A DNA stretch of 64,000 bases from Armatimonadota bacterium. GTDB taxonomy: Bacteria > Armatimonadota > Fimbriimonadia > Fimbriimonadales > GBS-DC. Positions 21,918-64,000 of this stretch are shown one piece after another. How positions within the stretch are numbered: position 1 is the stretch's first letter; every line of letters begins with the position of its first letter. The position numbers were made by a program, and so were the translations under genes. The notes under the pieces are model-generated. The model ran no database searches. It saw only the letters and a list, made by a program, of their open reading frames with translations, and was not told where the DNA came from. The stretch covers positions 3,431 to 67,430 of the forward strand of contig JABWCR010000014.1 of assembly GCA_013359125.1 (NCBI GenBank). Direction: 5' to 3'.

Positions 21918-21920
21918 GCG

Positions 21921-22694: not shown

Positions 22695-22695
22695 C

Positions 22696-24590: not shown

Positions 24591-24617
24591 GGTATACTCG
24601 AACAGCCCAATATCACC

Positions 24618-48362: not shown

Positions 48363-48785
48363 GTGAGGCTCCGCGAATTCGTTAGCGACCACCTAAACAG
48401 CCTTTTCACCGCGCTCAAGGCCTCACAAGCCCCGCCGATCGGAGAGTGTGACGAGGCTCAGTTGAAGGAGTGTCTTCGCAGAGGGCGAGTCCAAACCGGC
48501 ACAGTCCGATATCGGCCTATGGCCGTGCAATTCGAGTTCATTTTTCAAGACCCATCGCTCGGACCGGCCGTGCTTACGGTAACTGTAGAAACCCCGGAAC
48601 CGATCGTCTATATGCCAGTGCCCGATTGGGTTCAAGAAGAGGTCTGGCAAGGCGAGGTGGGCGGTACTTTTCGCTTCAGGAGCGAGGCCGAACAGATGAT
48701 CGAGCAGTTCGCCGCATCGACGCTCAGCACGGATCAGAACGCCGTCTGGTTTGAGGAACGGCAGAGGGCCAAAAGGCGCGAATGA
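48363..48785 (+). CDS. Hypothetical small protein
   Basis: The ORF ends in an ATGA overlap with the M16 peptidase gene, suggesting translational coupling. The start is inferred from the -10 spacing. No motif recognised. Confidence 0.45.
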   Translation: MRLREFVSDHLNSLFTALKASQAPPIGECDEAQLKECLRRGRVQTGTVRYRPMAVQFEFIFQDPSLGPAVLTVTVETPEPIVYMPVPDWVQEEVWQGEVGGTFRFRSEAEQMIEQFAASTLSTDQNAVWFEERQRAKRRE

Positions 48786-50080
48786 CGCTGTACGATTCTA
48801 AGTACCGCCTTAAGTTCGAGCAGGGCGAGCTTCCCAACGGTTTGCGCTTTGTGTTTGCGCCCGACGACGGCGCCCCGGTCGCAGCCTCTGTGCTTCTCTA
48901 TGATGTCGGCGCTCGAAACGAAGACCCGGGCAAGACGGGGTTTGCCCACCTGTTCGAGCATATGATGTTCCAAGGCTCTGCGAACGTGCCGCGCGAGATG
49001 CACTTTAAGCATGTAGAGGCGAACGGAGGCGTTTGCAACGCCTTCACCTCCTTTGATGTAACCGTCTACTTTGAATTGATGCCGTCGTCTAAGTTGCCGT
49101 TGGCGCTCTGGCTAGAGGCGGATCGGATGCAGTCGCTCGACCTGAGTCAACAGAACTTGGACAATCAGCGGGCTGTTGTCAAGGAGGAGCGCCGCCTAGC
49201 GGTAGACAACAAGCCTTACGCCCCTGCCAGAGAGCGACTGCGCGAAATCGCTTACGATTCCTTTGCCAATCAGCATTCGATCATTGGCTACATGGAAGAC
49301 ATCGACCGCGCAAGCCTCAGCGAGTTTCAGGAGTTCTTTCGAACGTATTATGCGCCGAACAATGCGCTGCTTGTGGTAGCGGGAAGCTTTGACCCTCGGG
49401 ATGCAATGAAGCTGATCGAAGAGCTCTTCGGCGGCGCTTCCAGACGGCCAGACCCGCGGCCGCCCGATGTCAACGAGTCTAATAGGAGCGCCGAGCGCAG
49501 AGAGACGATCCATGATCCCTTGGCTAACGTGCCGGGATTGGCCGTCGCATGGAAGGCGCCCGACCGCTCGCATCCCGACGCCGAGGCACTCTCGATGGCG
49601 GCAGAGATACTGTTCGGCGGATCGGCCTCACGGATTTATCAGCGTCTTGTCAAAAAGGACGCACTCGCAGTCAGCGTCTCGGGCTATCTGGAGATGCGGC
49701 GAGGGCCGAGTTTGTTTCACTTCTTTGCGCTTCATCGTCCAGACGTCGATCCCACCGATATAGAACGCGCGGTTTACGATGAGTTTGCCAACTTCGCCCT
49801 CAACGGCCCGAACGATCAGGAGGTCGAGCGGGCACGGGCCAGAGTGCTGGCACAGAGGCTGGGAGGGTTGTCCATTTATGGGTTGCAATCGCCGCTTGGC
49901 AAGGCGCTGGCGCTGGGAGAGGCGGGCCTGTTCGATGGCGATCCGGATCAGGCCAATCTGCGGCTAGACCGAGCCCTGACTTTGACGCCGAGCAGCATGA
50001 AAGAGGCTGTCGCACGGTGGTTGATCGATGATGGCGAGCGAGCGACGCTGCACATTGGCGCTGGGGAGGGAGGATCGTGA
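48782..50080 (+). CDS. M16-family zinc peptidase (pitrilysin-like), catalytic subunit
   Basis: The inverted zinc motif HLFEHMMFQGS (HxxEH). Confidence 0.9.
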   Translation: MTLYDSKYRLKFEQGELPNGLRFVFAPDDGAPVAASVLLYDVGARNEDPGKTGFAHLFEHMMFQGSANVPREMHFKHVEANGGVCNAFTSFDVTVYFELMPSSKLPLALWLEADRMQSLDLSQQNLDNQRAVVKEERRLAVDNKPYAPARERLREIAYDSFANQHSIIGYMEDIDRASLSEFQEFFRTYYAPNNALLVVAGSFDPRDAMKLIEELFGGASRRPDPRPPDVNESNRSAERRETIHDPLANVPGLAVAWKAPDRSHPDAEALSMAAEILFGGSASRIYQRLVKKDALAVSVSGYLEMRRGPSLFHFFALHRPDVDPTDIERAVYDEFANFALNGPNDQEVERARARVLAQRLGGLSIYGLQSPLGKALALGEAGLFDGDPDQANLRLDRALTLTPSSMKEAVARWLIDDGERATLHIGAGEGGS

Positions 50081-51372
50081 GCGCCTTTCCGACTTCGCCT
50101 CCGCCCGACTTAGAATCCAAGGCGTTCGTACTGCCGGAGCCGATCAACATGGCTCTATCGGGCGGCACAAGGCTTAAGTTCGTGCGGAACGAGCAGGCGC
50201 CCATGATCATCTTGCGCGTCATCGTCCGCTCTGCGGCAGAGCATTGCGCCGAACCGTTCGGGCTAGCGGCTGCGGTCGCACGGCTGATCGCATCGGGCAC
50301 TAGCGGCAAGTCGAGCTTTGAGATCGCCGACGAGGCTAATCGATATGGCGGCGGCGTCAGCGCCTCCGCATCGAGCGATTACGCCGTTCTGTCCATTAGT
50401 TGTCTCAGCGCCTACTTGGATCCCATGATGAAGTTGGCCGGGGAAGTCCTCAGCAATTCGAATTACCCCGAGAACGAGGTCGAGATCGACCGTGCGAACT
50501 TGATCCAAAGGCTGCGCGCGCAACGAGCCGAGCCAGGCTTTCTGGCTGCAGAGAAATATGCCCAAGCAGCCTATCCAGGACATCCTTATAGCATGGTCTC
50601 GCCTTCCGAAGAGGACGTCCTCCAATGGACGGCAGAACAGATGCGCGAGGCACGGCAAGCGCTTTTCCGTTCGGGCGCCTCTAATGCGATCATCGTTGCC
50701 GTTGGCGATGCAGAGCCTGAGAATCTAAAGGCCGCGATCGAGCGCCATTGGTCAAACTGGTTAGCGAGCACGACAGAACCAGAAGATTTCATCCAACCCA
50801 TGCTGCCCAACGAATCTGGCGAGATTTGGGTTCAGAGGCCGCGATCCGCTCAGTGCAATCTCAGAATCGGCTGCCGCGCGCCGACGCGCACCGACGACGA
50901 GTTCACCCCGCTCAACATAGCAACGGTCGTGCTTGGAGGTTCCGCCAGCTCTCGCCTCTTTCTGAACGTCCGAGAAGATCTCGGCTACGCCTATCACGTT
51001 GGCGCCCGTTTGAGCACGCGCCTCAAAGCCGGTTCAATGATCGTCGAGGCCGAAACGGCCCAAGAGAACGTCCGCCATGCTATCCAAGAGATTCATCGCG
51101 AAATCAATCGTATGGCAAACGACGGGCCGACCGAACAAGAACTCTCGACCATCAAGGCCTATATGACCGGACAGTTGGCCATGCGCTGGATCACCCAGGG
51201 CGGGATCGCCGACACGCTTTTGGTCAGCGAAGCCTTTGGTCTGCCCGACGACTATTGGCAGACGCAACCCGAACGAATTCGGCAGACAACGGCCGAACAA
51301 GCCCGCCAAGCCTTTGCCAATCGCCTCGATCTAGATCGCTTAATCACCGTCGGCGTAGGCGAATCGCTGTGA
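50077..51372 (+). CDS. M16-family peptidase, non-catalytic partner (no HxxEH)
   Basis: Same length and domain layout as the upstream M16 gene, with a GTGA start/stop overlap, but the zinc motif is absent. Confidence 0.85.
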   Translation: MSAFPTSPPPDLESKAFVLPEPINMALSGGTRLKFVRNEQAPMIILRVIVRSAAEHCAEPFGLAAAVARLIASGTSGKSSFEIADEANRYGGGVSASASSDYAVLSISCLSAYLDPMMKLAGEVLSNSNYPENEVEIDRANLIQRLRAQRAEPGFLAAEKYAQAAYPGHPYSMVSPSEEDVLQWTAEQMREARQALFRSGASNAIIVAVGDAEPENLKAAIERHWSNWLASTTEPEDFIQPMLPNESGEIWVQRPRSAQCNLRIGCRAPTRTDDEFTPLNIATVVLGGSASSRLFLNVREDLGYAYHVGARLSTRLKAGSMIVEAETAQENVRHAIQEIHREINRMANDGPTEQELSTIKAYMTGQLAMRWITQGGIADTLLVSEAFGLPDDYWQTQPERIRQTTAEQARQAFANRLDLDRLITVGVGESL

Positions 51373-51446
51373 GCGCGGGTAAGATTCACGGTCTTGGAAC
51401 ATTTTCCGCGCAATGCCGGTCAAACCACTCAGGGCAGAGCGAATCC

Positions 51447-52286
51447 ATGCCTGCCTTACCGCTTGCCAGGGGGTATAGCGCTTTGAAAAAGGGATTTACA
51501 CTGACCGAACTGTTAGTCGTGATCGCCATCATCTCCATCCTCGCGGCGATCATCTTTCCGGTCTTTAGTTCTGTAAGGGAAAACGCTCGACGAACCACCT
51601 GCGCTTCCAATCTGAACCAAATCTACGTCGCCTTTGAAACGTACCGCCTGGACTATGGCGGCCAAGCGCCGCCCGCGCTGTTCGGTTACGTCTTGGGCCA
51701 AGGCAACAGTTGCGCGGTTCAAGCGCCCAACATGGACCAGCTTCCCAACAACGAGTTTCTGCGCCACTACCTCAAGAACAGCGCGATCTTTCAGTGCCCC
51801 AATAATCCAACGAACGATCGGGGTCTGCTGGGCACGGCAGTCTATCCCGCAGGACATGCTTTGGCGGGGCAGACCGTTAGAGAAGACCCCTTTGACAACA
51901 GCAGCCCGGTCAAGTGCTTCTATCAAGCCAATTCGTACGACACAGGCCGACGTTTGGACACCAGCCAACTCGAGTTGCGATATACGCTCTTTTGGTCTAA
52001 CGAGGCCCTCAACGGGGTCGAAAACCAACTGAACGGCGGCACGACCACCTATGGCCTGGGCTATTACGATCCGCCGGTCGGCGGCAAGCCCAGCGATACG
52101 CCAAGGCAATTGGGTTATCGTAAGAAAGAGCCTAGCGCTGTGATCACATGGTGCACCCACCATCGAAAGTTCACCAATTCGCAAGTCAACAAAGGCAAGG
52201 ACGATCTGGTCCTCTTTGCGAGCGGCAACGTTGCTCGATTCGACTCCGCGACCCTGACGGACAATCCTTATAATAGGCGGCCCTAA
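51447..52286 (+). CDS. Prepilin-type N-terminal cleavage/methylation domain protein (DUF1559-like small pilin)
   Basis: KKG|FTLTELLVVIAIISILAAIIFPVF is a class III signal with Glu5. The part of the listed ORF upstream of 51447 overlaps the M16 gene and is discarded. An alternative start is the TTG at 51483 (giving MKKGFTL). Confidence 0.85.
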   Translation: MPALPLARGYSALKKGFTLTELLVVIAIISILAAIIFPVFSSVRENARRTTCASNLNQIYVAFETYRLDYGGQAPPALFGYVLGQGNSCAVQAPNMDQLPNNEFLRHYLKNSAIFQCPNNPTNDRGLLGTAVYPAGHALAGQTVREDPFDNSSPVKCFYQANSYDTGRRLDTSQLELRYTLFWSNEALNGVENQLNGGTTTYGLGYYDPPVGGKPSDTPRQLGYRKKEPSAVITWCTHHRKFTNSQVNKGKDDLVLFASGNVARFDSATLTDNPYNRRP

Positions 52287-52462
52287 TCGAAGGCAGGATA
52301 ACCGGCCTAAGAAACCGAAAATAAACTGTGGAACAAAATCGCCTTTCAGAATGTCGAAGAGAGAAAAGCGGCGTCGCGAACGCAGGGCCGATCGCGATGC
52401 CGCGCGTCCGTTCGACAAACCGAGAGGCACGGATCAAGAAACTAACTGTGCCGGGGGCAGCA

Positions 52463-53299
52463 ATGAAAAAAGGGTTTACCTTGACAGAACTTTTGGTCGT
52501 TGTTTTTATCGTAACCGTGCTCGCGGCCATCATCTTTCCTGTTGCGGCCTCTGTTCGCGAGCGCGCTCGACGAAGCTCCACCCTGTCCAACCTTCAACAG
52601 ATCTACATCGCCATCCAGCAGTACAAACTGGACGAGCAGGCTTTTCCGCCCGCGCTCTTCAACTACATCGTCGATACTAACGGCGTCGGCTGCGGCAACA
52701 TTGCGGCGCCCCCCATCGATCATGTGGATACAACGGGGTTCTTAAAGCCCTATCTAAGATCGACCGAGGTGTTCCATTCGCTCAACAGTCCATACGACGA
52801 TCGGCGCATTTTGACCGAGGTCTACTACCCGCAAGGGCATGCATTGGCGGGTCGCATGGTGCGGGTCGACCCCTTGGATAATTCGAGCCCGCCTCTTTGC
52901 TACTACCGTTACGACAGCATGAACATCGGGCACAATCCGGGCGCCAGCCGCTTTGAACTGCGATATAGCCTTTTCTGGAGCAACAGCGCGCTCAATCAAA
53001 CGGAGAATAGACTCGGAGGCGACCCGAACGGCGCCCAACCGTATGGCGACGGCTTTTGGGACGCGCCGGTCGGCATGAAGCGCACCGACACGCCGCGCCA
53101 ATTGGGCTACAAAAACCCCGATGACTCCACCGTTATCACCTGGTGCAGTTATCACCGAACTTATAGCGGCGGTACGCCTAACTTGGGCAGAGACGACTTA
53201 GCGCTGTTCTTGAACGGCACAGCCAAATCCGTGAGCACGCGGGATGCCGCCGTTAACAGCATAGACATGTTCAACGCGCCTTACAACGTCCGACCGTAA
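52463..53299 (+). CDS. Prepilin-type N-terminal cleavage/methylation domain protein, tandem paralog
   Basis: MKKG|FTLTELLVVVFIVTVLAAIIFPVA. It is collinear with the upstream paralog along its whole length (RYSLFWSN.ALN..EN.L, VITWC..HR). Confidence 0.85.
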   Translation: MKKGFTLTELLVVVFIVTVLAAIIFPVAASVRERARRSSTLSNLQQIYIAIQQYKLDEQAFPPALFNYIVDTNGVGCGNIAAPPIDHVDTTGFLKPYLRSTEVFHSLNSPYDDRRILTEVYYPQGHALAGRMVRVDPLDNSSPPLCYYRYDSMNIGHNPGASRFELRYSLFWSNSALNQTENRLGGDPNGAQPYGDGFWDAPVGMKRTDTPRQLGYKNPDDSTVITWCSYHRTYSGGTPNLGRDDLALFLNGTAKSVSTRDAAVNSIDMFNAPYNVRP

Positions 53300-53331: not shown

Positions 53332-55128
53332 ATGAAGCATCGAAGCGCAGAACGAGGAACCACGCTGATCGAAATTCTCGTGGTCATCGTCATCTTGCTG
53401 GTCGGAATCTTCGCGTTCGTTCGCCTTTTGCCCACTGGCTTCTTCATACTTCAGCAGTCTGGCGAAGCAGGAAACGCAGGACGCTTGGCTCAGAGCGAAC
53501 TGGAGAGACTAAAGGCCCAGCCCCAGAACTTAGCCTCTGCAATTCTCCCTGTTAAGTTCGAACAGGACGCTCAGGGCAACTGGGGACAGGTCATCGATAT
53601 GGACGCCGAGCCGGACCGCATGGTTTTCGACGACTCCTATCTGCCCGCCTATTACAGGCAGTACGCGACGGGCGCAAATCGATTTCGAGCCATTCGAGGC
53701 GAGCGCGTCAACGTGCCCCTGCCCGGACCGACAAACGTTGGACTGGGCTGCGTCTACATGACTTCGTTCGCGCCCATCGTCGAGGACCCGCCAAGCGCGA
53801 TCAGCTCCAATCTGTTGCTCTACTCGGATCCGATGCGGCGCAACGTGATGGAGTACGACACCTCTCGATTTCCTCGGTTGAGGCCGTTTGAGTACGGTAT
53901 CGATTACGACGAGGCCAAAATACTCTTGCGTCCCCGAGCCGACTTCGCCGTATCGTACAAAATCGACTTTGCCTTCTATCAGCAGGTCAACGGAGCGGTT
54001 ACCGTCGTCTTCTCACAGCAGACGGCTCTCTTAAATCCTACGGGCAATCCGAGAATCACAGCGGTTTGGGGCGATCTGGAGTACAACGGCCAGCCGGTTG
54101 CCACCGTCCCAGGCTTTATCGGCATCGTCCCCGATAGCGATGTGGCCGCAAGGCTGTTCGATCGATTGGGCAACTTTACGGCTTGGGCTGCGGACTATCC
54201 CTACCAATACAAAGTGGTCAACCACGCCTTGGGACTTGTTATCATGAATCCGGCGGCGTCCGGCTACTACGAGCGGTACGGCAATGGGCTAAGACCCCTC
54301 AGAGCCAATGTCGATTACATCGTGCGAGACTGGCGGATTATTCGCGAAGATCGCCAAGTGCCCAACCGCCGCATCGTCAAGCTCACTTTCAGCAATGTCA
54401 AGAAGAGCGGCGACCTGCAGAACGACCAGACGACTTACGCCGGCCTAGCCATTACGCCGGACGGCCAACTGATCAGCGGCACCGAGGACGTGCTGATCAT
54501 CAACACCGAGGACGGCGGCGTGGCCAAGTCGGGCTATCAGGTCGACTATCGAACGGGCGAAGTGCGCTTTGATCAGAACGTCGATTTTGTTCGCGTTCGA
54601 TTCGATAATAACACTCTTCAAAGGATGTTCGAGCCTTATACGGCAGATCTGAACGCGCAAACGCTTACTCTACGATTTCTTTATCGAGTGGAGAACGACT
54701 GGGCGATGTCTGCGCAGAAATCGACCGAGAGTTTTACTCCATCCTATTCGCCCGCGATCAACTTCGATCAGTGTTACATCAGCGACAGTTCGCCGCAACT
54801 GTTCTTTAGGCTTTGCGAAGCGGGCAAGACGGTCGTGCTGAGAGAGTATTTCTATCGGGACGACAAGGGCAACATCCATAGGGCGGCCAATGGAATCTTT
54901 AAGATCACGAACAATCCCGCCCTCTACCAGACCAACGGCGCCATTCGGCTAGCGCCCCTCGATCTGAGAGAGAGACATCCCAATGCGGTCGCTTGGGCGC
55001 CGGAACCGACAGGACTGCCGGTGCGCGGCGTGCAGGGCGTCTCTCTGCGAGTGCGCATGAGTTGGCAGCCGCCAGGACAACGAATCAAAAGACAAGATTT
55101 CGATACTTTGCTGGTTCGAGAGCAGTAA
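53332..55128 (+). CDS. Very large pseudopilin-like protein (598 aa) with a class III signal
   Basis: ERG|TTLIEILVVIVILLVGIFAF (Gly-1, Glu5). SD AGAGGAG. Confidence 0.8.
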   Translation: MKHRSAERGTTLIEILVVIVILLVGIFAFVRLLPTGFFILQQSGEAGNAGRLAQSELERLKAQPQNLASAILPVKFEQDAQGNWGQVIDMDAEPDRMVFDDSYLPAYYRQYATGANRFRAIRGERVNVPLPGPTNVGLGCVYMTSFAPIVEDPPSAISSNLLLYSDPMRRNVMEYDTSRFPRLRPFEYGIDYDEAKILLRPRADFAVSYKIDFAFYQQVNGAVTVVFSQQTALLNPTGNPRITAVWGDLEYNGQPVATVPGFIGIVPDSDVAARLFDRLGNFTAWAADYPYQYKVVNHALGLVIMNPAASGYYERYGNGLRPLRANVDYIVRDWRIIREDRQVPNRRIVKLTFSNVKKSGDLQNDQTTYAGLAITPDGQLISGTEDVLIINTEDGGVAKSGYQVDYRTGEVRFDQNVDFVRVRFDNNTLQRMFEPYTADLNAQTLTLRFLYRVENDWAMSAQKSTESFTPSYSPAINFDQCYISDSSPQLFFRLCEAGKTVVLREYFYRDDKGNIHRAANGIFKITNNPALYQTNGAIRLAPLDLRERHPNAVAWAPEPTGLPVRGVQGVSLRVRMSWQPPGQRIKRQDFDTLLVREQ

Positions 55129-55162: not shown

Positions 55163-57022
55163 ATGAATAAGGAGCGATCGATGCGGAGCGTCAACAAATG
55201 GAGAGCCGGGTTCACCTTGGTAGAACTGCTGGTGGTCATTGCGATCACCGCCATTCTGCTGGGCCTGCTGTTAGGCCCGCTGGTTACCGGCTTCAATCTG
55301 ACGCGCAAGAGCCAAGCCGTCATCCAGGCGCAAAACTCCGCCCGTTTGGCCATGGAGACGGTCGAGCGCGAGCTTCGCAGCGCAGCCTATATCTTTGACA
55401 ACTTCGACCGTCGTCTTAGAATTTGGGCGCGAGACGGCGCCGGAAACATGGTCTACAGCGACGAGCCTTTCTGCATTATCGACCTTGCGCCGCCAGCGCG
55501 AGGCAACCCGGTCGCGCCCTCTAACGATCCCACGACCGACGTGCCGACCGGCGAGATCAATCTTCCGCTGGCCGCCGGCCGCGTGATGGTGCGCTACTTT
55601 ATCGGCCTGCAGGACAACCGCTCGGCGATGAACAATGGCGTCTGGATGCCCGTCCGAGGCTATGTCAACGGCTTTGAAAGCAACTTCGTCGCCGCCGGAC
55701 AAGACGACAACCTCTACCTCTTGTATCGAGCCGAGTTTCCAATCTATCGCGAGGACGGCTCGCTGAACACCGACCTTTTTGTGGACGCCGATAACGACAA
55801 CATACCGGACGACTTCGACGATCCGAACTTTTTCTACGGTCCGAATTGGCAGAACTGGCAGCGCGTCGCCCAACCGGTAGTCGCCGCTCAACGAGCCGAC
55901 ATGATCACGCTCAAAGTCGATCCTAACGGTGCCATCACCGAGTTCAATCCGCTCATGCAGTTCAGGCCGGTCGAGGTCAAAGGCCAGACGGCCGCGCCGA
56001 TCTCGGACAATTCGCTGAGCGACGAAATGGGCGATCAGGCCGCGCCGACCCAGTTCCGACTGCCGCACGGCTCCTGGGCCAACAAATTTGATATGGCGAT
56101 CTATCGAAGTTCGCCCGACGCCAACCCGGCAGCCAACCAGACTCGCGAGCTTTTCTACACCTCGCGCGAGCCGAACGGCTGGATGCTCTATCACTGGATT
56201 CAGCCTGCAGGCGCGCCTAACGGCACAGCCGAGCGAGTCGCTAACCTCACTGAGTTCAAAAGATGGTTTTTGGGCGGGCCGACGCCGACCATGCCGCCTA
56301 ATCTTTGGAACCAGATGGACGTTTCCACCACTCAAGAGCCGACCATCTTCTTGGTGGACGAAGGCAATGGGATGCTCCAGTTCGACATTCCCTCATGGCT
56401 CTTCGCACCGAACGGATTTGTCTACGACACGGACGTTATCAACCAGCGATATGTCGATGCGATCGCGCTGGATCCCGACAACGCGCCCAACATTCGCCGG
56501 TTCGTCAGCCTGATCGATTCCGACGATAACGGAACGATCGACAACCCAAGAGGCAACAACCGAAACCCGGTCGCCTACTACAGCGCCGGGGTCGTACCCG
56601 GCTCGGAACTCGTGATCGGGCCGGATCAGAGCGCAGGACCGCACTTTGGCCGACCCATCCGCTACACTCGAGTTGCCTACAATTCGATGTCGGTCGGGCC
56701 CAACCAGTATCGCGTTCGATATCAAGATTTGATCACCAATGCGGCCGCGCCCGAGTTCAACCAGCCGAGATTTCGTCGCGGCTACATCGAATTTACCAGC
56801 GACCCGGCCACGCCGTTGCCATCGGGAGAGATCGTTGTAACGTTCTCCTTTCAGCTCAATCGAAAGAGCGACACGGTCGTCGTGGACTATGTTACTCGAC
56901 AAGCCCTCAACGTCTCGATGTCGATCAAGGTGTACGACCCCGGCTCGGGCGACGCTATGTACTATGCCCTCAACACCAACATCGAACAGCCGAATCTGAT
57001 CCGAATCATGGGAGAGAGATAG
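55163..57022 (+). CDS. Very large PilW/GspJ-like pseudopilin (about 613-619 aa)
   Basis: RAG|FTLVELLVVIAITAILLGLL followed by ARLAMETVERELRSA. The ATG at 55181 has a better SD (AAGGAG) than the one at 55163. Confidence 0.8.
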   Translation: MNKERSMRSVNKWRAGFTLVELLVVIAITAILLGLLLGPLVTGFNLTRKSQAVIQAQNSARLAMETVERELRSAAYIFDNFDRRLRIWARDGAGNMVYSDEPFCIIDLAPPARGNPVAPSNDPTTDVPTGEINLPLAAGRVMVRYFIGLQDNRSAMNNGVWMPVRGYVNGFESNFVAAGQDDNLYLLYRAEFPIYREDGSLNTDLFVDADNDNIPDDFDDPNFFYGPNWQNWQRVAQPVVAAQRADMITLKVDPNGAITEFNPLMQFRPVEVKGQTAAPISDNSLSDEMGDQAAPTQFRLPHGSWANKFDMAIYRSSPDANPAANQTRELFYTSREPNGWMLYHWIQPAGAPNGTAERVANLTEFKRWFLGGPTPTMPPNLWNQMDVSTTQEPTIFLVDEGNGMLQFDIPSWLFAPNGFVYDTDVINQRYVDAIALDPDNAPNIRRFVSLIDSDDNGTIDNPRGNNRNPVAYYSAGVVPGSELVIGPDQSAGPHFGRPIRYTRVAYNSMSVGPNQYRVRYQDLITNAAAPEFNQPRFRRGYIEFTSDPATPLPSGEIVVTFSFQLNRKSDTVVVDYVTRQALNVSMSIKVYDPGSGDAMYYALNTNIEQPNLIRIMGER

Positions 57023-57023
57023 G

Positions 57024-59702
57024 ATGAACCGGGTTTACCCAAGACGGGCAAAACAAGACGGCACGACGCTCATTATCGCGCTGCTGGTAATCGTTATCAT
57101 GGCTTCGCTGGGCGCCGTGTTCATCAGCCTCATCTCCAGGAACATCCGCTTTGCGGAGCGCGGGCGCGAAAGCCTGACCGAGCAGTACTTTGCCGAGGCA
57201 GGCATCCGATTTGCCGTCAATCAGCTTTCCCACAGCGAAGAGGGCGCCGATTGGCGACCTCAGCCGGACAACCTGGATATGACGCAACCCCTCATCGCTC
57301 GAGATCCCGATGCGCCTTTCTTGATGCCATATTCCCAGGCCGATCAATTTGATAACAATGGCGTCCGGGTCAGCGGACCTTCGGGCGGCTTTACGCGAAT
57401 CGCTTTTGGAAAGGGACGATCGCTGGTGCGAGTCAGCTACCAGCCTCAACTGAACGATCCGTTCTCTCACATGATCAAGATCGAATCGGTGGGACGAGTG
57501 GGCGAAGTCGATGCGAACGATCCGACGACCTTCATCAACGACGGACCGCTCAAGAGGCGCGTGCTGGTCGCATATGTCCAAATCGGCCTTGCCGACTATC
57601 TGCGCTTTGTCATGAACCATGATCGAAGAGCCACGCCGACCGAAGTCGGCGCGGACGAAATCGGCCTGGTCGATCCCCAGAACGCCGCGCAGAGCATCAC
57701 TCCGACCATCGTCTATGGTCTGCCTCAGGCTGCCGGCGCTGGATGGGGCGGCGCGCCCATGCGTTTCAACACCGACGTTCGCTTCCGCGGCAACGTTCAG
57801 ATGTTCGTCAACCCGGATTTTGAGCGCGTAGAGGTTGCCGGCAGCATCGACGTGCCGGGGTTGGCGGCCAATGGCACGCCGTCGGTAACGCTTAACGGCG
57901 TTCCCGTTTATCCCAGCAACCGACAACAGTTCAGCACGCACAACGGCCTTATCCGCGATGCCAGCGCGCGCGTCGATCCTTTCGGCTATCCGCGCAGCGC
58001 CGCCTACCTCGAACCGCCCCGCATGGACGTGGTGGACCCGGCCAGCGGGCAGAACCGTTACATCGCCCTCACCCGCGCATCGGGCCGGTGGCGGCAAGAC
58101 TTTGGCGGCAACTGGTACAACACCGGCCGAGACGGATACGGCCGTGGCATCTACATCAACAACACGGGCGACATCCAGCAAGAGAGCGGCAGTTTGGTCG
58201 GCGGCTATAGCATGCGATCGGACTGGCTCAATCCAGGCCGAAGTCCCTTCTGGAACGGCGCGTTCTACACGCCGCCGGGAGCCTATGTCGAACTGATCGA
58301 TCGAGCCGACGTCAATCCGTTGCGAGCCAAGTTCGGAATGGTCGTTACGCGAAATCAATCCAACAACAACGACACTTGGAGAGAGCCCGTATCGGGCAGG
58401 CGAACAAACATCAAGACCCTTGGCTTCTGGTTCCGAGCGCCCAACGACCGGTTCGATCCGCGCATCTACAACGATTTCACGCGCAACCAGCCGAACCAGG
58501 ATGTCGAGTTCAATGGCGTCATCTATCTCGAAGGCAATGTGCGAATCCGAGGCACGATCCCGCGCGGTCGGCAGATCACGATCGTAACCAACGGCACGGC
58601 CTACATAGAAGGGAACCTTTTAAAGGGCGACGCCTTCTCGTCGCTGGCTATCATCGCCAAGGACCATGTCTGCCTGAACACGACCCAGTTCCTTTCGAAA
58701 CTCCCAAGCGGACCTGCGGTCGCTGTAACCGATCCGTTGGACAGCGATGCACCGTTCCACTTTTCGACCGATGCCAATACGCCGCTCGACCTCAGTTTCT
58801 CATTCGGCGTCGATCCGACGACATACGACACCTTTAACACTTACGGCGTTCGGTATCTTACCAGGCACTCCGGCGCTTCCGTCGCTTCATTGATCAACCT
58901 ACTGATCAATCCTGGCGTGGACAACAGCCCGCTCAACGATTTTTATCTGTTCAACCTGCCCAACTTTGCGCCGAACCTCTATGTGCTGCAGAATCAGGCC
59001 AGTCAGATTTATCCGCGCTACGAGCGAGGCGGCATCAACCTGCTTCCGCCGACCAACAACTACGCGATATACGTCCAGCCAGGTTGGGAGAACCTCCTAA
59101 GGTTTCAACTGGACCCGACGGTTAGCGCGCCTTCTGGCAATCAGAACTACTTCTTTAGCACGGGCGCCGTGGTGCCGAACGATTGGGTCGTCCAAGCGGC
59201 CCTCTATGCCCAGAACGGCAGTTTCTTCGTTATCCCAGGCTATTGGCACAACACCAACACGGACGACACTCGCGCCAACTTTGCCGCTCGGGGCACGAGG
59301 CCGCTGGGGGTCTTGTCGCCAGACGTTCCGTTCTACGGCGAACCCTTGGACATTAAGATCACGATCGAAGGCGCGATCGCAGAGAACACAGCGGCTTCGT
59401 TGCACGACCAGAGCGAATGGCTCAAACGATGGGGATGGATTCCGCTGACCTATGGCAATTCCGGACAAGAGATTCCGTCCACTCACCAACAGTTTATGCA
59501 TCACGCCGATTACGCGGCCAATCTCTTTATGCGGTACGACCGCACTTGGCGCAGGCCGTTCAGCAACACTGTTACGCCCGAACCGTTGAGGATCGCGAAT
59601 TTTCCAGATCCGTCGGGCACGCATCCCGGTCGGCTTTTGCCGGCTGCGCCTAAACTGCCTGTCTGCCCCAAGCCTGTTTATGTAGGAGAGGATAGAAGAT
59701 GA
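57024..59702 (+). CDS. Very large PilX/GspK-like pseudopilin (892 aa) lacking Glu5
   Basis: QDG|TTLIIALLVIVIMASLGAVFISL has Ile at +5. It is followed by the PilX_N/GspK-like AEAGIRFAVNQL. It begins 1 nt after the upstream stop. Confidence 0.8.
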   Translation: MNRVYPRRAKQDGTTLIIALLVIVIMASLGAVFISLISRNIRFAERGRESLTEQYFAEAGIRFAVNQLSHSEEGADWRPQPDNLDMTQPLIARDPDAPFLMPYSQADQFDNNGVRVSGPSGGFTRIAFGKGRSLVRVSYQPQLNDPFSHMIKIESVGRVGEVDANDPTTFINDGPLKRRVLVAYVQIGLADYLRFVMNHDRRATPTEVGADEIGLVDPQNAAQSITPTIVYGLPQAAGAGWGGAPMRFNTDVRFRGNVQMFVNPDFERVEVAGSIDVPGLAANGTPSVTLNGVPVYPSNRQQFSTHNGLIRDASARVDPFGYPRSAAYLEPPRMDVVDPASGQNRYIALTRASGRWRQDFGGNWYNTGRDGYGRGIYINNTGDIQQESGSLVGGYSMRSDWLNPGRSPFWNGAFYTPPGAYVELIDRADVNPLRAKFGMVVTRNQSNNNDTWREPVSGRRTNIKTLGFWFRAPNDRFDPRIYNDFTRNQPNQDVEFNGVIYLEGNVRIRGTIPRGRQITIVTNGTAYIEGNLLKGDAFSSLAIIAKDHVCLNTTQFLSKLPSGPAVAVTDPLDSDAPFHFSTDANTPLDLSFSFGVDPTTYDTFNTYGVRYLTRHSGASVASLINLLINPGVDNSPLNDFYLFNLPNFAPNLYVLQNQASQIYPRYERGGINLLPPTNNYAIYVQPGWENLLRFQLDPTVSAPSGNQNYFFSTGAVVPNDWVVQAALYAQNGSFFVIPGYWHNTNTDDTRANFAARGTRPLGVLSPDVPFYGEPLDIKITIEGAIAENTAASLHDQSEWLKRWGWIPLTYGNSGQEIPSTHQQFMHHADYAANLFMRYDRTWRRPFSNTVTPEPLRIANFPDPSGTHPGRLLPAAPKLPVCPKPVYVGEDRR

Positions 59703-62700
59703 AAACCAAGCGATTTGACCGATTGATCAAGGGCGGCTTGGCCGCCTTAGCCATTTTCAGCGCTGCTCAAACGGCGATCGCCGATGGGCGCGGATACGGG
59801 CCTCGGAGAGCCGAGATCAATGCCGCGGTCGTGGTCCTCTCCAACCAGCCCGACGATCCCAATATCGCGCCGGGCGCGGACGACAGCCGAGACTGGTACG
59901 CCTTTTTCGCCCTCGATTCGCGCACCGACCTCAAACCGCCTGGCTGGGAGTTCTTGAATCCTTACGCTCCTGCTGATACCGGCAAGCGGTCTGCACGCTA
60001 TTGGAAGGTTCGACTGAGCCAACTGAGCGACAACCAACTGATGCGCTACAACGTGCTGTTGCTGTCGGCGGCGCCGGCCTCGTTCCGTATGAGCCTAAGC
60101 GATCGGGACAAACTTCGACGCTTTGTCGATGCGGGCGGCGTGCTTTGGGTCGAGATCCCTGCGGGATGGAACAGGGGGCAGAACATCTTCTTCCCAGACG
60201 TTCGCAATACAATATCCGCCGGGGGGGCAGCTGGCATCTTTGCTATCGACCACCCCATGCTCCGAGGTTACTACACGCTCAATCCGACAGAAGCGCTCAA
60301 CCTTGGCGTTATCAGAACCTCCGCGTTTACTCTGTCGGTCAGCGAACTGATACCCGTCATCGGCACTTCGACCAACCAGAATATGCTGGCGTCGGGAATG
60401 TACGGAAGCGGACGGATCGTGGTGAGTTCGATTGGCATCGCGCAGTCGCTCAGTCAGCCCTTTGGGTCTGGTCCGGCGGCGCTCGCATCGGCCGTAAAGT
60501 TGGTTCCACCCAAGGATCTCAAGCTGATTTACAATGCTGTCCGTTGGGCCGGCTCCACCTCGACGCCCAGCAAAGATTTTCGAAGGTCCAACCATGCGTT
60601 CGATCGATACGGTGCCCCGATGGCCAACAAATGGCAGGCGGCAGGCATCAATCCAGTTGCAACGCCCACCATTCACAAAGGATTTGTCTATATTGCCGAC
60701 GGCGGTCGTCTCATGTGTTTTGACGGTTTCCCCCGCAGGGATGCCGACCTGGACGGCAGCAGCGACGACGGCATACCCGATCTGTTTCGCAATCCGCCCA
60801 TTCCGGGACGTACCTACGACCAGGTTTGGGAAGCTCGGTTAAGCGGCGGCCAATCGAGCAGTCCGGTCGTCGTCCAGGTCGCGCGGCAACAGCCCGGCGG
60901 CCAAGTAACGCCCGAAGACTTAGTGATCGTGGTCGGCGATTCCGACATACGCGCCTACCGCGCCGTGCCGAGATTGCCAAACGGACGCATCAGCCCGGTT
61001 GGAGAATTGGCATGGACCGTCAACTGGGGCGATTTTGGCGGAGCCCCGCTCTCGCCGGCCCGGCTGCCTAACGGCGAGACCGTCGGAGCGCTCTATGCCG
61101 ACGGCCTGATCATGATCCCGTGCGAATCTTCCAGCGGCGGCAACAACCATGCGGGCATGGTCGCGATCTGGGGGCCGACCGGACAGACGATGTACAGTTT
61201 CGATCGCAATCAGCCAGGCGTGCCGATCCCGTGGGTACAGCCCAACCCGCGAAGCGTCGTTCCGGTCAGCACGTGGAAGGCGCATCCTGCCATGGGATGG
61301 GTGCCTAACACCAGCCAGGGCGGCGGGGTCGATCTGGTCGCCTATCTGCCGGGCGAACAGCAGTTCGGCCAGGGCCAAACCGTAACCCAGCCGACCGTGT
61401 TTGCGTTTTGGGTGGGCGCAAGAGGAGAACTTTTGCAACAAGAGGCGGTCGGCTCTGGGCTGTTCTCTACTCGCCTCACTCGCGTCTCGGGCGCGGATAT
61501 GTTCATCATTAACAACCAGTCCAACCCCGGTTGGGAATTGAGACCTCGCGTCTATGCGGAAAACCGGCTGACGAGCACAGTGGTCGAAGTGCCTGACACG
61601 GCGCTGAACTTTGCGCAGGGCAACGGCCGCGTGCAGATCGATCCGACTTGGGATCCGGCCATCTACAACCTCTACATCGACTACTTCCTCGATTGGAAAG
61701 CCGTCGTCCAAACGGCGCTTTTCCGAACCTTTATGACCTTGGCCTCGGCCAGTGCTGCCGGACAGAACCCGTATGCCAACGAGATCGCGGGCGTAACCCT
61801 GGCCCCCGATGGCACGCTGTTCGTCGCCTCCCACGCTACCGATGCCACTGCGCCGCTAAGCAATGGCAACGTCTTCGCCGTCGAAGAGCGCTTTAGCGAC
61901 GGACGCACGAGCGGCACTCGCGTGCTATGGCGCTGGCAAGCCCACGGCGGATACACGCAAATCGTAGCCGGTCAGGTAACCGGCATTCCGGCCTCGCTCA
62001 ACTGGATGGACACCAGCCTTCCGTTCTTTAATCAGTGGATCAACAGCGGTTTGATGGATTTTGGCGAACCCGGAAACAACCAAGACAACGATCAGATGCA
62101 CGTTCGATTTACCCATCCGCCGGTCTACGCGAACGGCGTGCTGTACCTGGTGGGAGAAGGGCGCGTGCGCTTCTTTGGGTTCCCAGTCGGCTACAGTGTG
62201 CTGATGGCGCTCGACGCCAATCCGAATCAGTTCGAGATTCGCCTGGGCGCGCCGATCACTAGCCCGACCGGCACGATCCTCATCCGACAACTGGATTATG
62301 CTCGCGGCGGCCGAATCAATGGCGCCACCAACACCATCTCGATCAATCCGAACGGGAACGACCGCCGGATCGAGCTGAAAATGGAAGGCGGCGTGATCCG
62401 ATTCAAGTCCTTCGCCGACTACACACAAAGTCGCCCCGACCTGATGAACAACGTGCTCAGCCTGAGCCAGCCGGTCGAGGTCAATATCAGCGGCCAAAGC
62501 TACTTCATCCGGCCAAGCGACCCGCAACTGTCCGGCACTTGGAACAACCTGCTTTGGTATGTCGTTTCTCCAACGGGCACGGCGCAAGGTCCGCCGGTGG
62601 TGATGGGCGATATCGTCTACACGCCGATGAACAACACCTTCTTTGATCCCGGCCAAGGCGGCATCACCACGTTTGGCGGCGTAACCGCCATGAGCGCGAA

Positions 62701-64000
62701 TCCGAAAAGGGAACTGCCCAACCTGACCCGAGGCGGACAGGTGCCTCTGATCGGAGTGGAAGCCATGCTCTGGCCAAGCCTCAAAGATCTGCCCGCCGAT
62801 GCCCAGAACAATCCGGGCGCGTTTCTGCGAGAATTGATCGTGCGCTTCCGCAACAGTTCGATTCTCGGAAGCAACGTGAGGCCTCTCGCCTTCGGCGACG
62901 GATTGCTGATGGCCAGCGGCAGCGAAGGCATGGTGGCCTACGAGCGCGAGTTCACGCTCATTGCCGACAACGGACGAATCATCGAACTGGATACCGAAAG
63001 CACAGTGGCCTGGGCGGCGGAGAACAGCGAACTGCTGACCCAACTCACAGGATCGACCGAGGCCGTCGTCAAAACGCCTATCGGTTCTTCCGCTCGAGTC
63101 TATCGCATCAACCCCAACGAGATGCTGGTGGTCGATTCGACCAACGACCGAGTGATCGTGATGGATCGTAGCGGCAACGAAAGACGAATCATTAAGTCGT
63201 TCGTGCCCGATCGCGCGCCGATCAGAGCGGCTAACGGCAACATCGTCAATTTTGCAACAACCCGAGACGCCAATCGGCCAACCGGATGGGTCGGGGGCGA
63301 TTCGGTTACCCTGCGCTCACCCAGCGATGCGGCCACTTGGACAGAGTTCGTGCCCAATGCCAACAACCCGTTTGCCTACAAGTCGCCAACGGGCCTGGAG
63401 TATTGGGTCCACTATTTGATCGCGGACACGGGCAACTTCCGAATAGTCGATGTGGTCGATCGATATGCGGCCGACGCGACCACCCGCGCCGTGCGAGGAG
63501 TCTTGATCGATCCGAGCACCAATCAGGAGCAGCTAAACATGCTCAACTGGGTCTCGCCCACGTCGACCGACGGCAAAACCTACCGATACGTGGGTGCCAA
63601 TCGATTCCAATACGGCATTCTGAACCCTGGGCAGGCCAACGAGACTCCCGTGTGGGGATTTGCAAGCCTGGTGCAGAACTATCGGGCAGGTGGGACGGCC
63701 GCAACGCCGCAAGATCGCCAATCGCCCGAAGAAGGCATGATCATCCTGCAGATCAACAATGCCGACGGCACGACCAGTCTCAACTATTGCCGCAGGATGC
63801 GCATCCGGCTTCCTGGCCAAGGCGTCGTTGAAAGACCACTGATCAACCCGGTTTCGATCGCGGTTTCTCCGAACGGGCTGGCCGGCAATGTCGGAAATGT
63901 CCAACTTTTCGACATTCGGGTCATGTTCGTCGATGCGACCGGCGTCTACGAGTTGACGCCCAATCCAAACTCCGAAACTTGGGACTGCGTTTGGGCGTTC
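59699..64000 (+). CDS. Giant secreted protein (>1433 aa), PilY1-like by position and beta-propeller-like repeats; 3' end beyond the window
   Basis: My own translation from the ATG at 59699 (ATGA overlap with the upstream stop, GGAGAGGA SD) stays open to nt 64000. Signal peptide MKTKRFDRLIKGGLAALAIFSAAQTAIA. Repeated strand motifs occur, such as GFVYIADGGRLMCFDG, ANGVLYLVGEG and GDIVYTP. It is absent from the ORF track because it has no stop in the window. Confidence 0.8.
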   Translation, partial: MKTKRFDRLIKGGLAALAIFSAAQTAIADGRGYGPRRAEINAAVVVLSNQPDDPNIAPGADDSRDWYAFFALDSRTDLKPPGWEFLNPYAPADTGKRSARYWKVRLSQLSDNQLMRYNVLLLSAAPASFRMSLSDRDKLRRFVDAGGVLWVEIPAGWNRGQNIFFPDVRNTISAGGAAGIFAIDHPMLRGYYTLNPTEALNLGVIRTSAFTLSVSELIPVIGTSTNQNMLASGMYGSGRIVVSSIGIAQSLSQPFGSGPAALASAVKLVPPKDLKLIYNAVRWAGSTSTPSKDFRRSNHAFDRYGAPMANKWQAAGINPVATPTIHKGFVYIADGGRLMCFDGFPRRDADLDGSSDDGIPDLFRNPPIPGRTYDQVWEARLSGGQSSSPVVVQVARQQPGGQVTPEDLVIVVGDSDIRAYRAVPRLPNGRISPVGELAWTVNWGDFGGAPLSPARLPNGETVGALYADGLIMIPCESSSGGNNHAGMVAIWGPTGQTMYSFDRNQPGVPIPWVQPNPRSVVPVSTWKAHPAMGWVPNTSQGGGVDLVAYLPGEQQFGQGQTVTQPTVFAFWVGARGELLQQEAVGSGLFSTRLTRVSGADMFIINNQSNPGWELRPRVYAENRLTSTVVEVPDTALNFAQGNGRVQIDPTWDPAIYNLYIDYFLDWKAVVQTALFRTFMTLASASAAGQNPYANEIAGVTLAPDGTLFVASHATDATAPLSNGNVFAVEERFSDGRTSGTRVLWRWQAHGGYTQIVAGQVTGIPASLNWMDTSLPFFNQWINSGLMDFGEPGNNQDNDQMHVRFTHPPVYANGVLYLVGEGRVRFFGFPVGYSVLMALDANPNQFEIRLGAPITSPTGTILIRQLDYARGGRINGATNTISINPNGNDRRIELKMEGGVIRFKSFADYTQSRPDLMNNVLSLSQPVEVNISGQSYFIRPSDPQLSGTWNNLLWYVVSPTGTAQGPPVVMGDIVYTPMNNTFFDPGQGGITTFGGVTAMSANPKRELPNLTRGGQVPLIGVEAMLWPSLKDLPADAQNNPGAFLRELIVRFRNSSILGSNVRPLAFGDGLLMASGSEGMVAYEREFTLIADNGRIIELDTESTVAWAAENSELLTQLTGSTEAVVKTPIGSSARVYRINPNEMLVVDSTNDRVIVMDRSGNERRIIKSFVPDRAPIRAANGNIVNFATTRDANRPTGWVGGDSVTLRSPSDAATWTEFVPNANNPFAYKSPTGLEYWVHYLIADTGNFRIVDVVDRYAADATTRAVRGVLIDPSTNQEQLNMLNWVSPTSTDGKTYRYVGANRFQYGILNPGQANETPVWGFASLVQNYRAGGTAATPQDRQSPEEGMIILQINNADGTTSLNYCRRMRIRLPGQGVVERPLINPVSIAVSPNGLAGNVGNVQLFDIRVMFVDATGVYELTPNPNSETWDCVWAF

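Follow-up and report, generated by a model that had tools for sequence, protein, structure and literature searches.

A phylum-specific multi-propeller protein encoded in the PilY1 position of Armatimonadota minor-pilin loci: a candidate type IV pilus tip subunit

Tip subunits of described pili

In PilC and PilY1 the last ~10–12 residues are a plug that completes the beta-sheet of PilK or PilX. Two 2026 studies show that PilC/PilY1 govern pilus assembly and tip display by donating a short strand from their C-terminus to the minor pilin at the apex, and suggest gene order and complex modelling as means of finding tip subunits that are still unrecognised. In Neisseria, a truncated PilC was rescued by supplying the synthetic tail peptide. 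The order of the genes pilI/J/K hardly varies (PMC13533445). PilX and GspK, which are without Glu5, are located at the apex beside PilY1 (PMC7541494). In the MSHA pilus of Vibrio cholerae, MshQ is a non-PilY1 protein of ~1,200 aa that is encoded right after the pilIJK homologues mshDOP; its extreme C-terminus is the predicted anchor (PMC13533445). In the phylum Armatimonadota, Fimbriimonas ginsengisoli is fimbriate and has PilB/C/D/M/Q/T, with no PilY1 listed (PMC4072686).

The locus analyzed here encodes a 1,561 amino acid protein that is probably a functional analogue of PilC/PilY1, i.e. a Sec-exported non-pilin priming and tip subunit of the type IVa pilus minor-pilin module of Armatimonadota. 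Its likeness to PilC/PilY1 (P. aeruginosa PilY1, Neisseria PilC1/2, M. xanthus PilY1.1–1.3) includes a gene position after pilV/W/X-type genes and beside a Glu5-less apex pilin, a predicted type I signal peptide in place of a prepilin signal, a very large size, a beta-propeller, an exact Dx[DN]xDGxxD loop and a conserved extreme C-terminus. At the N-terminus, where a vWA domain is found in many PilY1 proteins, it likewise has an alpha/beta domain set apart from the rest. By sequence and fold, however, the protein is outside the PilC/PilY1 family (PF05567/IPR008707). PF05567 does not match it at E ≤ 1, and at E ≤ 0.01 it matches none of 30 family members. For genuine PilC models the best fold match is 3HX6, the solved PilY1 propeller; this structure is absent from the best 50 Foldseek PDB matches of either AlphaFold2 model. 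Both results count against the PilC/PilY1 analogy.

The protein shares with MshQ the PilY1 position without the PilY1 domain; the two differ in domain make-up and phylum, and no sequence relationship was detected (NCBIfam, E ≤ 1). GspK (T2SS), CpaL/TadG (Tad pili) and ComZ (Thermus) resemble the 892 aa partner encoded upstream, which has the same type of Glu5-less pilin-like N-terminus, large inserted body and conserved C-terminal segment. The 1,561 aa protein has no pilin-type N-terminus and thus is not of the GspK/CpaL/ComZ class.

Reading frame and family

The window (the whole 64,000 nt stretch of DNA analyzed) contains the first 1,434 codons of the gene at positions 59699–64000 of the + strand, as seen from translation, a full-length relative and codon-position GC. 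There is no stop codon between the ATG at 59699 and the window edge, and this portion corresponds to the N-terminal 92% of the protein. GenBank entry JAPKFX010000003.1 (locus L001) is identical to the window base for base, where window position equals L001 position + 49698. In this entry the frame reaches its stop codon, which is expected ~384 nt beyond the window end, at ~64384, and gives the full length of 1,561 aa. The product is identical to HUU60_08070, a hypothetical protein of an Armatimonadetes MAG. An earlier analysis made from the nucleotide letters (the sequence-only reading) had described this open-ended frame and proposed extension of the contig to find its stop; the extension bears this out, and all peptides quoted in that reading are present in the translation. 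It had also attributed the absence of the frame from the supplied list of open reading frames to the missing stop. This is correct, because open reading frames that run off the window end are omitted from the list.

The start codon (59699–59701) overlaps the TGA (59700–59702) of the 892 aa open reading frame, which extends from 57024 to 59702, in the four-nucleotide sequence ATGA. A Shine-Dalgarno-like sequence, GGAGAGGA, is found at 59685–59692 (+ strand), 6 nt 5′ of the ATG. Both features agree with the start region as first described. The ATGA overlap suggests translational coupling of the two genes.

Two minus-strand open reading frames lie within the gene, at 60920–61834 and 61925–63043. 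The GC3 of the + frame is 0.718, similar to neighbouring genes (0.71–0.75), and the minus-strand frames display a GC1 of 0.75 and a GC3 of 0.58–0.62, which mirror the + frame. They are therefore rejected as genes and represent shadow open reading frames, the antisense artefacts that the sequence-only reading had taken them to be.

The family to which the protein belongs has no name and, on sequence evidence, is restricted to the phylum Armatimonadota. A first homology search gave ~90 homologues of about 1,450–1,750 aa, and a search with a profile of the N-terminal 407 positions of the family alignment gave at least 392 clusters (50% identity) at E ≤ 1e-30. Ten sampled representatives are unnamed or annotated as "hypothetical protein". 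Among cultured species, Fimbriimonas ginsengisoli Gsoil 348 and Chthonomonas calidirosea T49 each encode members of the family. The full 1,561 aa sequence has no match among PDB chains in a sequence search and none in an NCBIfam scan at E ≤ 1, and the family profile gives only marginal matches in the PDB, to NHL and tetrathionate-hydrolase repeats. In the literature searched (DUF4159, Armatimonadota minor pilins, Fimbriimonas/Chthonomonas pili) the protein is nowhere described, nor is an amidotransferase-like domain fused to tandem propellers in a pilus operon; DUF4159 is mentioned there only in the Pfam database paper.

The absence of a stop inside the window is the one feature in favor of a chance open frame or a decaying, non-functional pseudogene. 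The probability of this is close to nil. Full-length homologues number in the hundreds (24–49% identity), their motifs are conserved, the folds are predicted with confidence, and the codon-position GC is typical of coding DNA; the homologues and their conservation refute it. Neither a frameshift nor an internal stop was found, and the propeller fold and the linkage to pilin genes in orthologues, on which the sequence-only reading also depended, are both present as described below.

Domain structure of the 1,561 aa protein

A Sec-type (type I) signal peptide is predicted at amino acid positions 1–28 (59699–59782, + strand), as judged by eye and by homologue conservation. The N-terminus reads MKTKRFDRLIKGGLAALAIFSAAQTAIA followed by DG, with predicted cleavage at AIA/DG. 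This site, already proposed from the letters, aligns with the conserved A-x-A/DGRGYEPR junction of the homologues, in which the mature start DGRGY.PR is conserved. Equivalent signals with A-x-A sites are found in 40 homologues. The AlphaFold2 model shows low pLDDT at positions 24–35.

The signal is followed by an N-terminal alpha/beta domain at aa ~36–290 (59804–60568, + strand), which is class I glutamine-amidotransferase-like (DUF4159-like) by Pfam, Foldseek and conservation. The stretch likened to DUF4159 in the sequence-only reading coincides with a sub-threshold Pfam DUF4159 match at aa 107–152 (E = 0.038; 13.9 bits against a gathering cut-off of 25.9). In a Pfam scan of 30 family members, with matches counted at E ≤ 0.01, PF13709 (DUF4159) is found in 22 (best E = 1.9e-9) and GLMA_2nd in seven. 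Foldseek matches to 7vky and 7bob, which are amidotransferase-like accessory domains of glycosidases, cover ~285 columns with a probability of 1.0. The most conserved 10-mer of the whole protein, KLRRFVDAGG (aa 138–147), is in this domain. Thus the family matches and the fold show a likeness to DUF4159/ThuA/GH42-type GATase1-like domains; the differences are that the protein itself is below the Pfam cut-off and is without the catalytic Cys. Catalytic amidotransferase activity of the domain is rejected because the family alignment shows no conserved Cys in it. The domain is not of the vWA type, as had been remarked earlier, and differs in this from PilC/PilY1 proteins, in which a vWA, DUF4114 or lectin domain may occupy this end.

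The kinship of these fold matches and of GLMA_2nd with accessory domains of glycoside hydrolases and transferases is compatible with a different role, that of a carbohydrate-binding or -processing cargo or surface-displayed exoprotein of a T2SS-like pathway, pushed out through the secretin together with the 2,084 aa protein encoded downstream. The analyses revealed neither a catalytic domain nor a conserved Cys, which argues against this role, and in view of the gene neighbourhood described below it is considered unlikely.

The central all-beta region, aa ~300–1055 (60596–62863, + strand), appears in AlphaFold2 and Foldseek analyses as a large beta-propeller with inserted beta sub-domains and terminates in a long helix (aa 1039–1053); these boundaries are approximate and taken from DSSP strings only. 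The two AlphaFold2 models have pTM values of 0.84 and 0.73. Foldseek matches of this region are to generic seven-blade-class propellers, e.g. those of semaphorins, tetrathionate hydrolase, EMC1, Lgl2, SF3B3 and CPSF160. PQQ_2 (PF13360) is found in eight of the 30 homologues (best E = 1.9e-8) and does not match the protein itself.

A second, NHL-like propeller at aa ~1060–1561 starts in the window at 62876 and continues to its end at 64000 (+ strand; Foldseek), with the final 127 aa beyond. It superposes on solved NHL domains (Thin, TRIM2, TRIM71) with a Foldseek probability of 1.0, and the matches 6xg7, 6d69, 7b96, 8j72 and 9jur have target TM-scores of 0.40–0.52. By sequence the NHL similarity is weak: Pfam NHL is found in two of the 30 members, and profile matches to Brat and TRIM2 in the PDB have E ~0.02. 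Thus there are two propeller regions, central with insertions and NHL-like, compared with one in PilC/PilY1.

The propeller-like repeats noted in the sequence-only reading are therefore supported by the structure prediction that it had called for and by the Foldseek and family-member matches. The scan of family models which it had also proposed gave a mixed outcome: the PilY1 model is not found, PQQ is found in homologues and not in the protein, and DUF4159 is below threshold in the protein and present in most family members. That reading had made no claim of PilY1 family membership.

A conserved acidic loop, D348-A-D-L-D-G-S-S-D-D-G358 (60740–60772, + strand), is identified by conservation and by a consensus match; the acidic motif pointed out earlier is found here, at aa 348–361. 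Residues D348ADLDGSSD356 match exactly the EF-hand-like PilY1 calcium-site consensus Dx[DN]xDGxxD (PMC8833165). In the family alignment D348, D350, D357 and G358 are invariant, and D352, G353 and D356 are at least 90% conserved. The loop is the second most conserved 10-mer of the protein, and the motif arose by chance in 15 of 2000 shuffles. DxDxDG loops are common in secreted proteins generally. From its sequence the D348–D356 loop is a putative calcium site of the PilY1 type. In the model it follows the first four-stranded blade of the central propeller, between strands 337–342 and 374–380. It is thus in the first propeller, towards the start of the propeller region, and not in the C-terminal propeller, which is a difference from PilC/PilY1 and counts against a tip subunit.

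The C-terminal tail, ...LRMPTSADRPF, lies beyond the window end. Its P-x-[F/S]-A-D-R pattern is kept across the phylum; its conservation is 0.58, which ranks 137th among 1552 windows, and the mean over the whole protein is 0.40. The monomer model predicts an ordered structure for the final 10 residues (pLDDT 86, with a short strand at 1556–1558), unlike the PilC plug, and this also counts against the tip-subunit assignment. The conserved tail would be a candidate anchoring strand to a PilK/PilX-type subunit.

Gene neighbourhood and proposed role

Five pilin-like genes precede the 1,561 aa gene on the + strand. The first two encode prepilins with the sequence KKG/FTLTELLVV, one of 279 aa with a GspG-like N-terminus and DUF1559 (51447–52286) and one of 300 aa with N_methyl and DUF1559 (52397–53299). 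They are followed by a 598 aa minor pilin (RG/TTLIEILVV; 53332–55128) with a weak PilV N-terminal match, a 613 aa minor pilin (AG/FTLVELLVV; 55181–57022) in the PilW/GspJ position, and the 892 aa pilin-like protein (DG/TTLIIALLVIV; 57024–59702), which is without Glu5 and in the PilX/GspK position. The minor pilins are 3–4 times the usual size, which is a further difference from PilC/PilY1 systems. The PilX/GspK assignment of the 892 aa protein draws on its gene position, the lack of Glu5 and a single weak NCBIfam GspK N-terminal match (E = 0.007), because a 16-sequence profile of it has no match in the PDB or Pfam. The sequence-only reading was right on linkage to pilin genes; the number it gave, three pseudopilins, is replaced by five.

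The order prepilin, ~600 aa pilin, ~620 aa pilin, ~900 aa Glu5-less pilin-like protein, 1,561 aa protein and ~2,100–2,500 aa secreted propeller protein is the same in three independently fetched metagenome loci and across 79 Armatimonadota genome loci. A homologue of the 892 aa gene is directly upstream of the 1,561 aa homologue in 65 of 67 testable Armatimonadota loci, so that the PilY1 position assigned from the letters holds across the phylum. The whole upstream gene set is present in 51 of 53 loci, and the two misses in each count are thresholding artefacts. An M16 peptidase pair upstream was rejected as part of the module because it is absent from loci L004–L006.

With respect to the assembly machinery, T2SSF and prepilin peptidase genes are upstream in metagenome loci L005 and L006, and PilM and PilN/O-like genes are downstream in these two loci and in JAPKFX010000003.1. 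In a relative, L102, PilM is followed by an N0/STN protein, a secretin and then aroK/aroB. These genes bear on the T2SS-like cargo interpretation. The prepilins with GspG-like N-termini and DUF1559, and the Golvesin_C and PQQ-type propellers of the 2,084 aa downstream neighbour, are in keeping with it. PilY1 itself has been likened to a T2SS substrate (PMC7541494), and the Fimbriimonas genome paper places many such genes under T2SS (PMC4072686). However, the adjoining assembly platform is PilM/PilN/PilO-like and not GspL/M, the related L102 operon has the classic pilMNO-secretin-aroK-aroB layout, and a phylum-wide linkage to a minor-pilin operon with a 4-nt overlap is abnormal for cargo genes.

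The presence of pilMNO right downstream in 28 of 47 loci could also indicate a periplasmic or outer-membrane accessory of the pilus machine that stays in the cell. It might plug or gate the secretin, or serve as a scaffold for alignment or for spanning the peptidoglycan. A Sec signal with no pilin-type signal, and a compact multi-propeller body (that of the pTM 0.84 model) which is large relative to the secretin channel, are consistent with this, and PilC has been proposed to sit pre-loaded in the secretin like a cork. The chance of such a role is nevertheless small. The six-gene module is apart from pilMNOPQ in L004 and others, as are minor-pilin/PilY1 operons, and the gene is more tightly linked to the Glu5-less tip pilin than to the platform genes (65/67 compared with 28/47).

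The second giant secreted protein is itself a departure from PilC/PilY1 systems. Its homologue follows that of the 1,561 aa gene in 58 of 67 loci. This co-occurrence would fit an arrangement in which the 2,084 aa protein is the true PilY1 analogue anchored to the 892 aa pilin, and the 1,561 aa protein is a tip-located secondary adhesin or chaperone that piggy-backs on it, comparable to TfcP or PilY2. Such an arrangement is very improbable: it is the 1,561 aa gene that follows and overlaps the PilX/GspK-type gene, this gene is in every locus examined while the neighbour is undetected in nine of 67, and the neighbour has no calcium-type motif.

In the favored interpretation, that of a PilC/PilY1-like tip subunit, the 1,561 aa protein would be produced together with the Glu5-less 892 aa PilX/GspK-type pilin, whose gene overlaps its own by 4 nt. 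It would join the giant minor pilins (598, 613 and 892 aa) in a complex at the inner membrane that serves to prime filament assembly, and would exit through the secretin borne on the pilus tip. The distal amidotransferase-like domain and the calcium-loop propeller may then form a binding or sensing surface. The 2,084 aa protein would probably be a second subunit of the same complex. At ~5,700 residues the complex would be very bulky for a secretin to let through, and this counts against the interpretation.

The 892 aa protein has a conserved C-terminal tail of its own, P[RK]LPV.P.L.YFGE. As in GspK or CpaL, this tail could complete the sheet of the 892 aa protein in cis and make a donated strand unneeded, which counts against the favored interpretation; the system would then resemble GspK/CpaL/ComZ and not PilK with PilC.

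A broader proposal is put forward tentatively, with somewhat less than even confidence. The locus may represent a third kind of type IV pilus tip presentation, in which three giant minor pilins carry the 1,561 and 2,084 aa multi-propeller proteins (~5,700 residues), and the 1,561 aa protein has acquired PilY1 hallmarks convergently on an unrelated scaffold. Such a tip module would be distinct from both modular pilins and PilY1-domain proteins. The convergent hallmarks would be Sec export, the DxDxDGxxD calcium loop and the conserved C-terminal anchoring peptide, and the scaffold would be the amidotransferase-like domain with tandem propellers.

The 1,561 aa family is a candidate for the unrecognised tip subunit of a whole bacterial phylum, with a different architecture in the PilY1 slot. 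If it is not a tip subunit, it is still a large, well-defined and phylum-specific protein family that deserves a name. If it is, an unrelated scaffold can take on the role of tip adhesin, the question arises of how so bulky a complex passes the secretin, and the family would provide an entry point to the binding targets of the fimbriae in Fimbriimonas and its relatives.

Full length of the open reading frame at 59699

The open reading frame that starts with the ATG at positions 59699–59701 (+) displays 1,434 stop-free codons and runs off the end of the window at position 64000. The ATG overlaps the TGA (59700–59702) of an open reading frame encoding 892 aa (57024–59702, +) and is preceded by GGAGAGGA at positions 59685–59692 (+). 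A sequence-only reading had described the open frame and the ATGA overlap, and had correctly attributed the absence of this frame from the mechanical ORF list to the want of a stop codon, since ORFs running off the window end go unlisted. A homology search gave an identical match of 1,561 aa, P0001, annotated as 'MAG: hypothetical protein HUU60_08070 [Armatimonadetes bacterium]', and its contig, JAPKFX010000003.1 (L001), is identical to the window at every base from window position 49699 onwards. Thus the window carries the first 92% of the gene.

The GC3 of the plus-strand frame is 0.718, similar to that of neighboring genes. Two long minus-strand ORFs that lie over it had been dismissed as antisense artefacts, and they are rejected as genes here because their codon-position GC (GC1 0.75, GC3 approximately 0.6) marks them as shadows of the plus-strand frame.

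Domain organization and conserved motifs

The protein has a Sec-type signal at its N-terminus (site AIA|DG), as had been proposed, and the homologues share the junction A-x-A|DGRGYEPR. Two AlphaFold2 models were made from a 41-sequence alignment, one of aa positions 1–1200 (pLDDT 79.0, pTM 0.84) and one of positions 362–1561 (pLDDT 79.9, pTM 0.73). Domain boundaries were taken from secondary-structure strings and are approximate.

The N-terminal alpha/beta domain (aa positions ~36–290) is amidotransferase-like in its predicted fold. Foldseek aligns it at probability 1.0, over about 285 columns, with amidotransferase-like accessory domains from two enzymes, an Ignavibacterium glucosyltransferase (7vky) and an Opitutaceae mannosidase (7bob). 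The Pfam DUF4159 match is sub-threshold in the protein itself (E = 0.038, positions 107–152); 22 of 30 family members match DUF4159 (best E = 1.9e-9) and seven of the 30 match GLMA_2nd. The earlier suggestion of a DUF4159-like domain in place of vWA agrees with these results. The family alignment displays no conserved Cys in this domain; KLRRFVDAGG (positions 138–147) is the most conserved 10-mer in the entire protein.

The central all-beta region (positions ~300–1055) resembles, by Foldseek, seven-blade-class propellers with insertions (semaphorins, tetrathionate hydrolase, EMC1) and also the multi-propeller proteins Lgl2, SF3B3 and CPSF160. The C-terminal propeller (positions ~1060–1561) is NHL-like, with matches at probability 1.0 to the NHL propellers of Thin, TRIM2 and TRIM71 (target TM-scores 0.40–0.52), and weak profile matches to Brat and TRIM2 agree. 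The models bear out the propeller repeats that had been read from the sequence.

The acidic motif D348-A-D-L-D-G-S-S-D356-D-G is in the loop following the first blade. It exactly fits Dx[DN]xDGxxD, the consensus of the EF-hand-like calcium site of PilY1 (PMC8833165), and is a candidate calcium site. The motif is invariant or nearly so in 41 of 41 aligned sequences, is the second most conserved 10-mer, and appears by chance in only 15 of 2,000 shuffled versions of the protein. The extreme C-terminus, which is outside of the window, displays, phylum-wide, P-x-[F/S]-A-D-R and then one or two more residues. Conservation in this tail is 0.58 versus a protein mean of 0.40.

Gene order and neighboring proteins

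The L001 locus begins with two M16 peptidase genes, followed by genes for 279 and 300 aa prepilins (both KKG|FTLTE), a 598 aa pilin (RG|TTLIE), a 613 aa pilin (AG|FTLVE), the 892 aa pilin-like protein, whose mature N-terminus (DG|TTLIIALL) is without Glu5, and the gene analyzed here. Then come a gene for a 2,084 aa protein that has a Sec signal and matches Golvesin_C and PQQ_2/BamB-type propellers, and pilM with pilN-like and pilO-like genes (L001 positions 21227–24686). Three distant loci from metagenomes have the same six-gene core. In two of them T2SSF and prepilin peptidase lie upstream of the core and PilM lies downstream; near the third there are no platform genes. The gene directly upstream encodes a homologue of the 892 aa protein in 65 of 67 testable genome loci, and 51 of 53 have the complete upstream set, the two misses in each count being thresholding artefacts. 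The proposed PilY1-like position and linkage to pilin genes are thus upheld in orthologues. PilM is at most 10 kb away in 28 of 47 genome loci. In a relative's locus identified through PilM (L102), an operon at positions 10001–17969 has PilM, PilN/O-like genes, a separate 244 aa N0/STN ORF, a 565 aa secretin ORF and a fused aroK-aroB. Such an arrangement is classic for type IVa pili. In this locus the secretin is possibly split or frameshifted.

These data bear on whether the protein is instead a cargo or surface exoprotein of T2SS-like type. In favor of this are the glycosidase-like matches of the N-terminal domain and the GspG/DUF1559 type of the prepilins; against it are the PilM/N/O platform and the phylum-wide locking of the operon, and we regard a cargo role as unlikely.

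The 598 aa (53332–55128, +) and 613 aa (55181–57022, +) minor pilins are three to four times the usual size, and the latter has a putative calcium-type motif of its own, DSDDNGTID, at aa position 446. The 892 aa protein displays a beta-helix-like repetitive body, e.g. FNGVIYLEGNVRIRG, and a phylum-wide conserved C-terminal segment, P[RK]LPV[CS]P.L.YFGE; it gave no match in Pfam or PDB, even as a 16-sequence profile. The 2,084 aa protein is encoded at L001 positions 14760–21014, starting 74 nt after the stop codon of the gene analyzed here and beyond the window end. Its orthologues reach 2,100–2,900 aa and share the C-terminal region W.FW.STR.G..D.Y.QT.AP.F.P, and a homologue is downstream in 58 of 67 genome loci. 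It is probably a second subunit; that it is the true anchor is very unlikely.

A 512 aa ORF with a TTG start (50748–52286, +) is over-extended. The prepilin motif sits at its aa position 247, thus the real gene is that of the 279 aa prepilin, from 51447. The M16 (insulinase-type) pair (48782–51372, +, 4 nt overlap) is directly upstream of the pilin genes but is absent from the three distant loci examined and therefore probably lies outside the module.

The remainder of the window holds housekeeping genes, and an ARAGORN search of the entire 64 kb gave no tRNA or tmRNA gene. ORFs at 5561–7453 (+, 630 aa) and 8336–10840 (+, 834 aa) match nothing in Pfam at E <= 1e-5. A 1,151 aa secreted protein (43296–46751, −), also without a Pfam match, is Gly/Ala/Val-rich with about ten tandem repeats of 19 residues. 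Its gene lies where the GC content of the window is highest (0.646), and the protein looks like a fibre or surface-layer type.

Comparison with PilC/PilY1 and distribution of the family

The order of minor-pilin genes, I/J/K (V/W/X), is nearly invariant. The final member of the set (PilX, PilK or GspK) is without Glu5 and forms the apex, and its gene is often followed, in type IVa pili, by that of PilY1. PilY1 is large and Sec-exported, combines a calcium-binding propeller with an N-terminal domain that varies, and sits on the apex pilin (PMC7541494, PMC13533445). Two 2026 studies show that PilC/PilY1 contributes a strand to PilK with its last 10–12 residues, and that GspK and CpaL each provide this strand from their own chain. 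MshQ (~1,200 aa), which is not a PilY1 homologue, is encoded after pilIJK homologues and is predicted to donate a strand as PilC does (PMC13533445).

The protein displays several features of the PilC/PilY1 type, namely operon position, signal peptide type, size, a propeller, a calcium-type loop and a conserved C-terminal peptide. Because of these features a PilC/PilY1-like role, in which it would act as a priming and tip subunit, appears to be the best explanation, and we favor it with moderate confidence. It is likewise unlikely that the protein stays inside the cell as a periplasmic accessory or plug.

The protein is not a PilY1 family member, however. PF05567 is matched neither by it nor by any of 30 relatives, NCBIfam gives no match, and the solved PilY1 propeller is absent from the 50 best Foldseek matches of both models, whereas models of true PilC retrieve that propeller first (2026 study). 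In place of vWA, DUF4114 or lectin, the N-terminal domain is of an amidotransferase-like type. The protein has two propeller regions instead of one, with the calcium-type loop in the first, and the monomer model displays an ordered tail (pLDDT 86). In addition, the 892 aa partner has its own C-terminal segment and may close its sheet in cis, as GspK or CpaL do. Overall, the observation made in the sequence-only reading is confirmed and its interpretation is supported.

The first homology search gave 90 proteins, nearly all of 1,450–1,750 aa and 24%–49% identical. A pattern scan with one genome per species found 79 loci, of which 73 bear Armatimonadota-lineage names (Fimbriimonadia, Chthonomonadales including Chthonomonas calidirosea, a Fimbriimonas ginsengisoli MAG, Armatimonas), five are named only 'bacterium' and one is an Archangium MAG. 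Records named for other phyla, i.e. Synechococcus sp. RC10B2 (P0022/P0025) and the Archangium gephyra MAG (L050), also have the family; these contigs are probably mis-binned. An exhaustive search with a profile of the N-terminal 407 positions (E <= 1e-30) gave 392 clusters at 50% identity; the best 150 are almost all full-length, and ten sampled representatives are nameless or 'hypothetical protein'. No paper describing the family was found. The protein defines a large, unnamed, Armatimonadota-restricted family, and what is new is a protein in the PilY1 slot with a non-PilY1 architecture.
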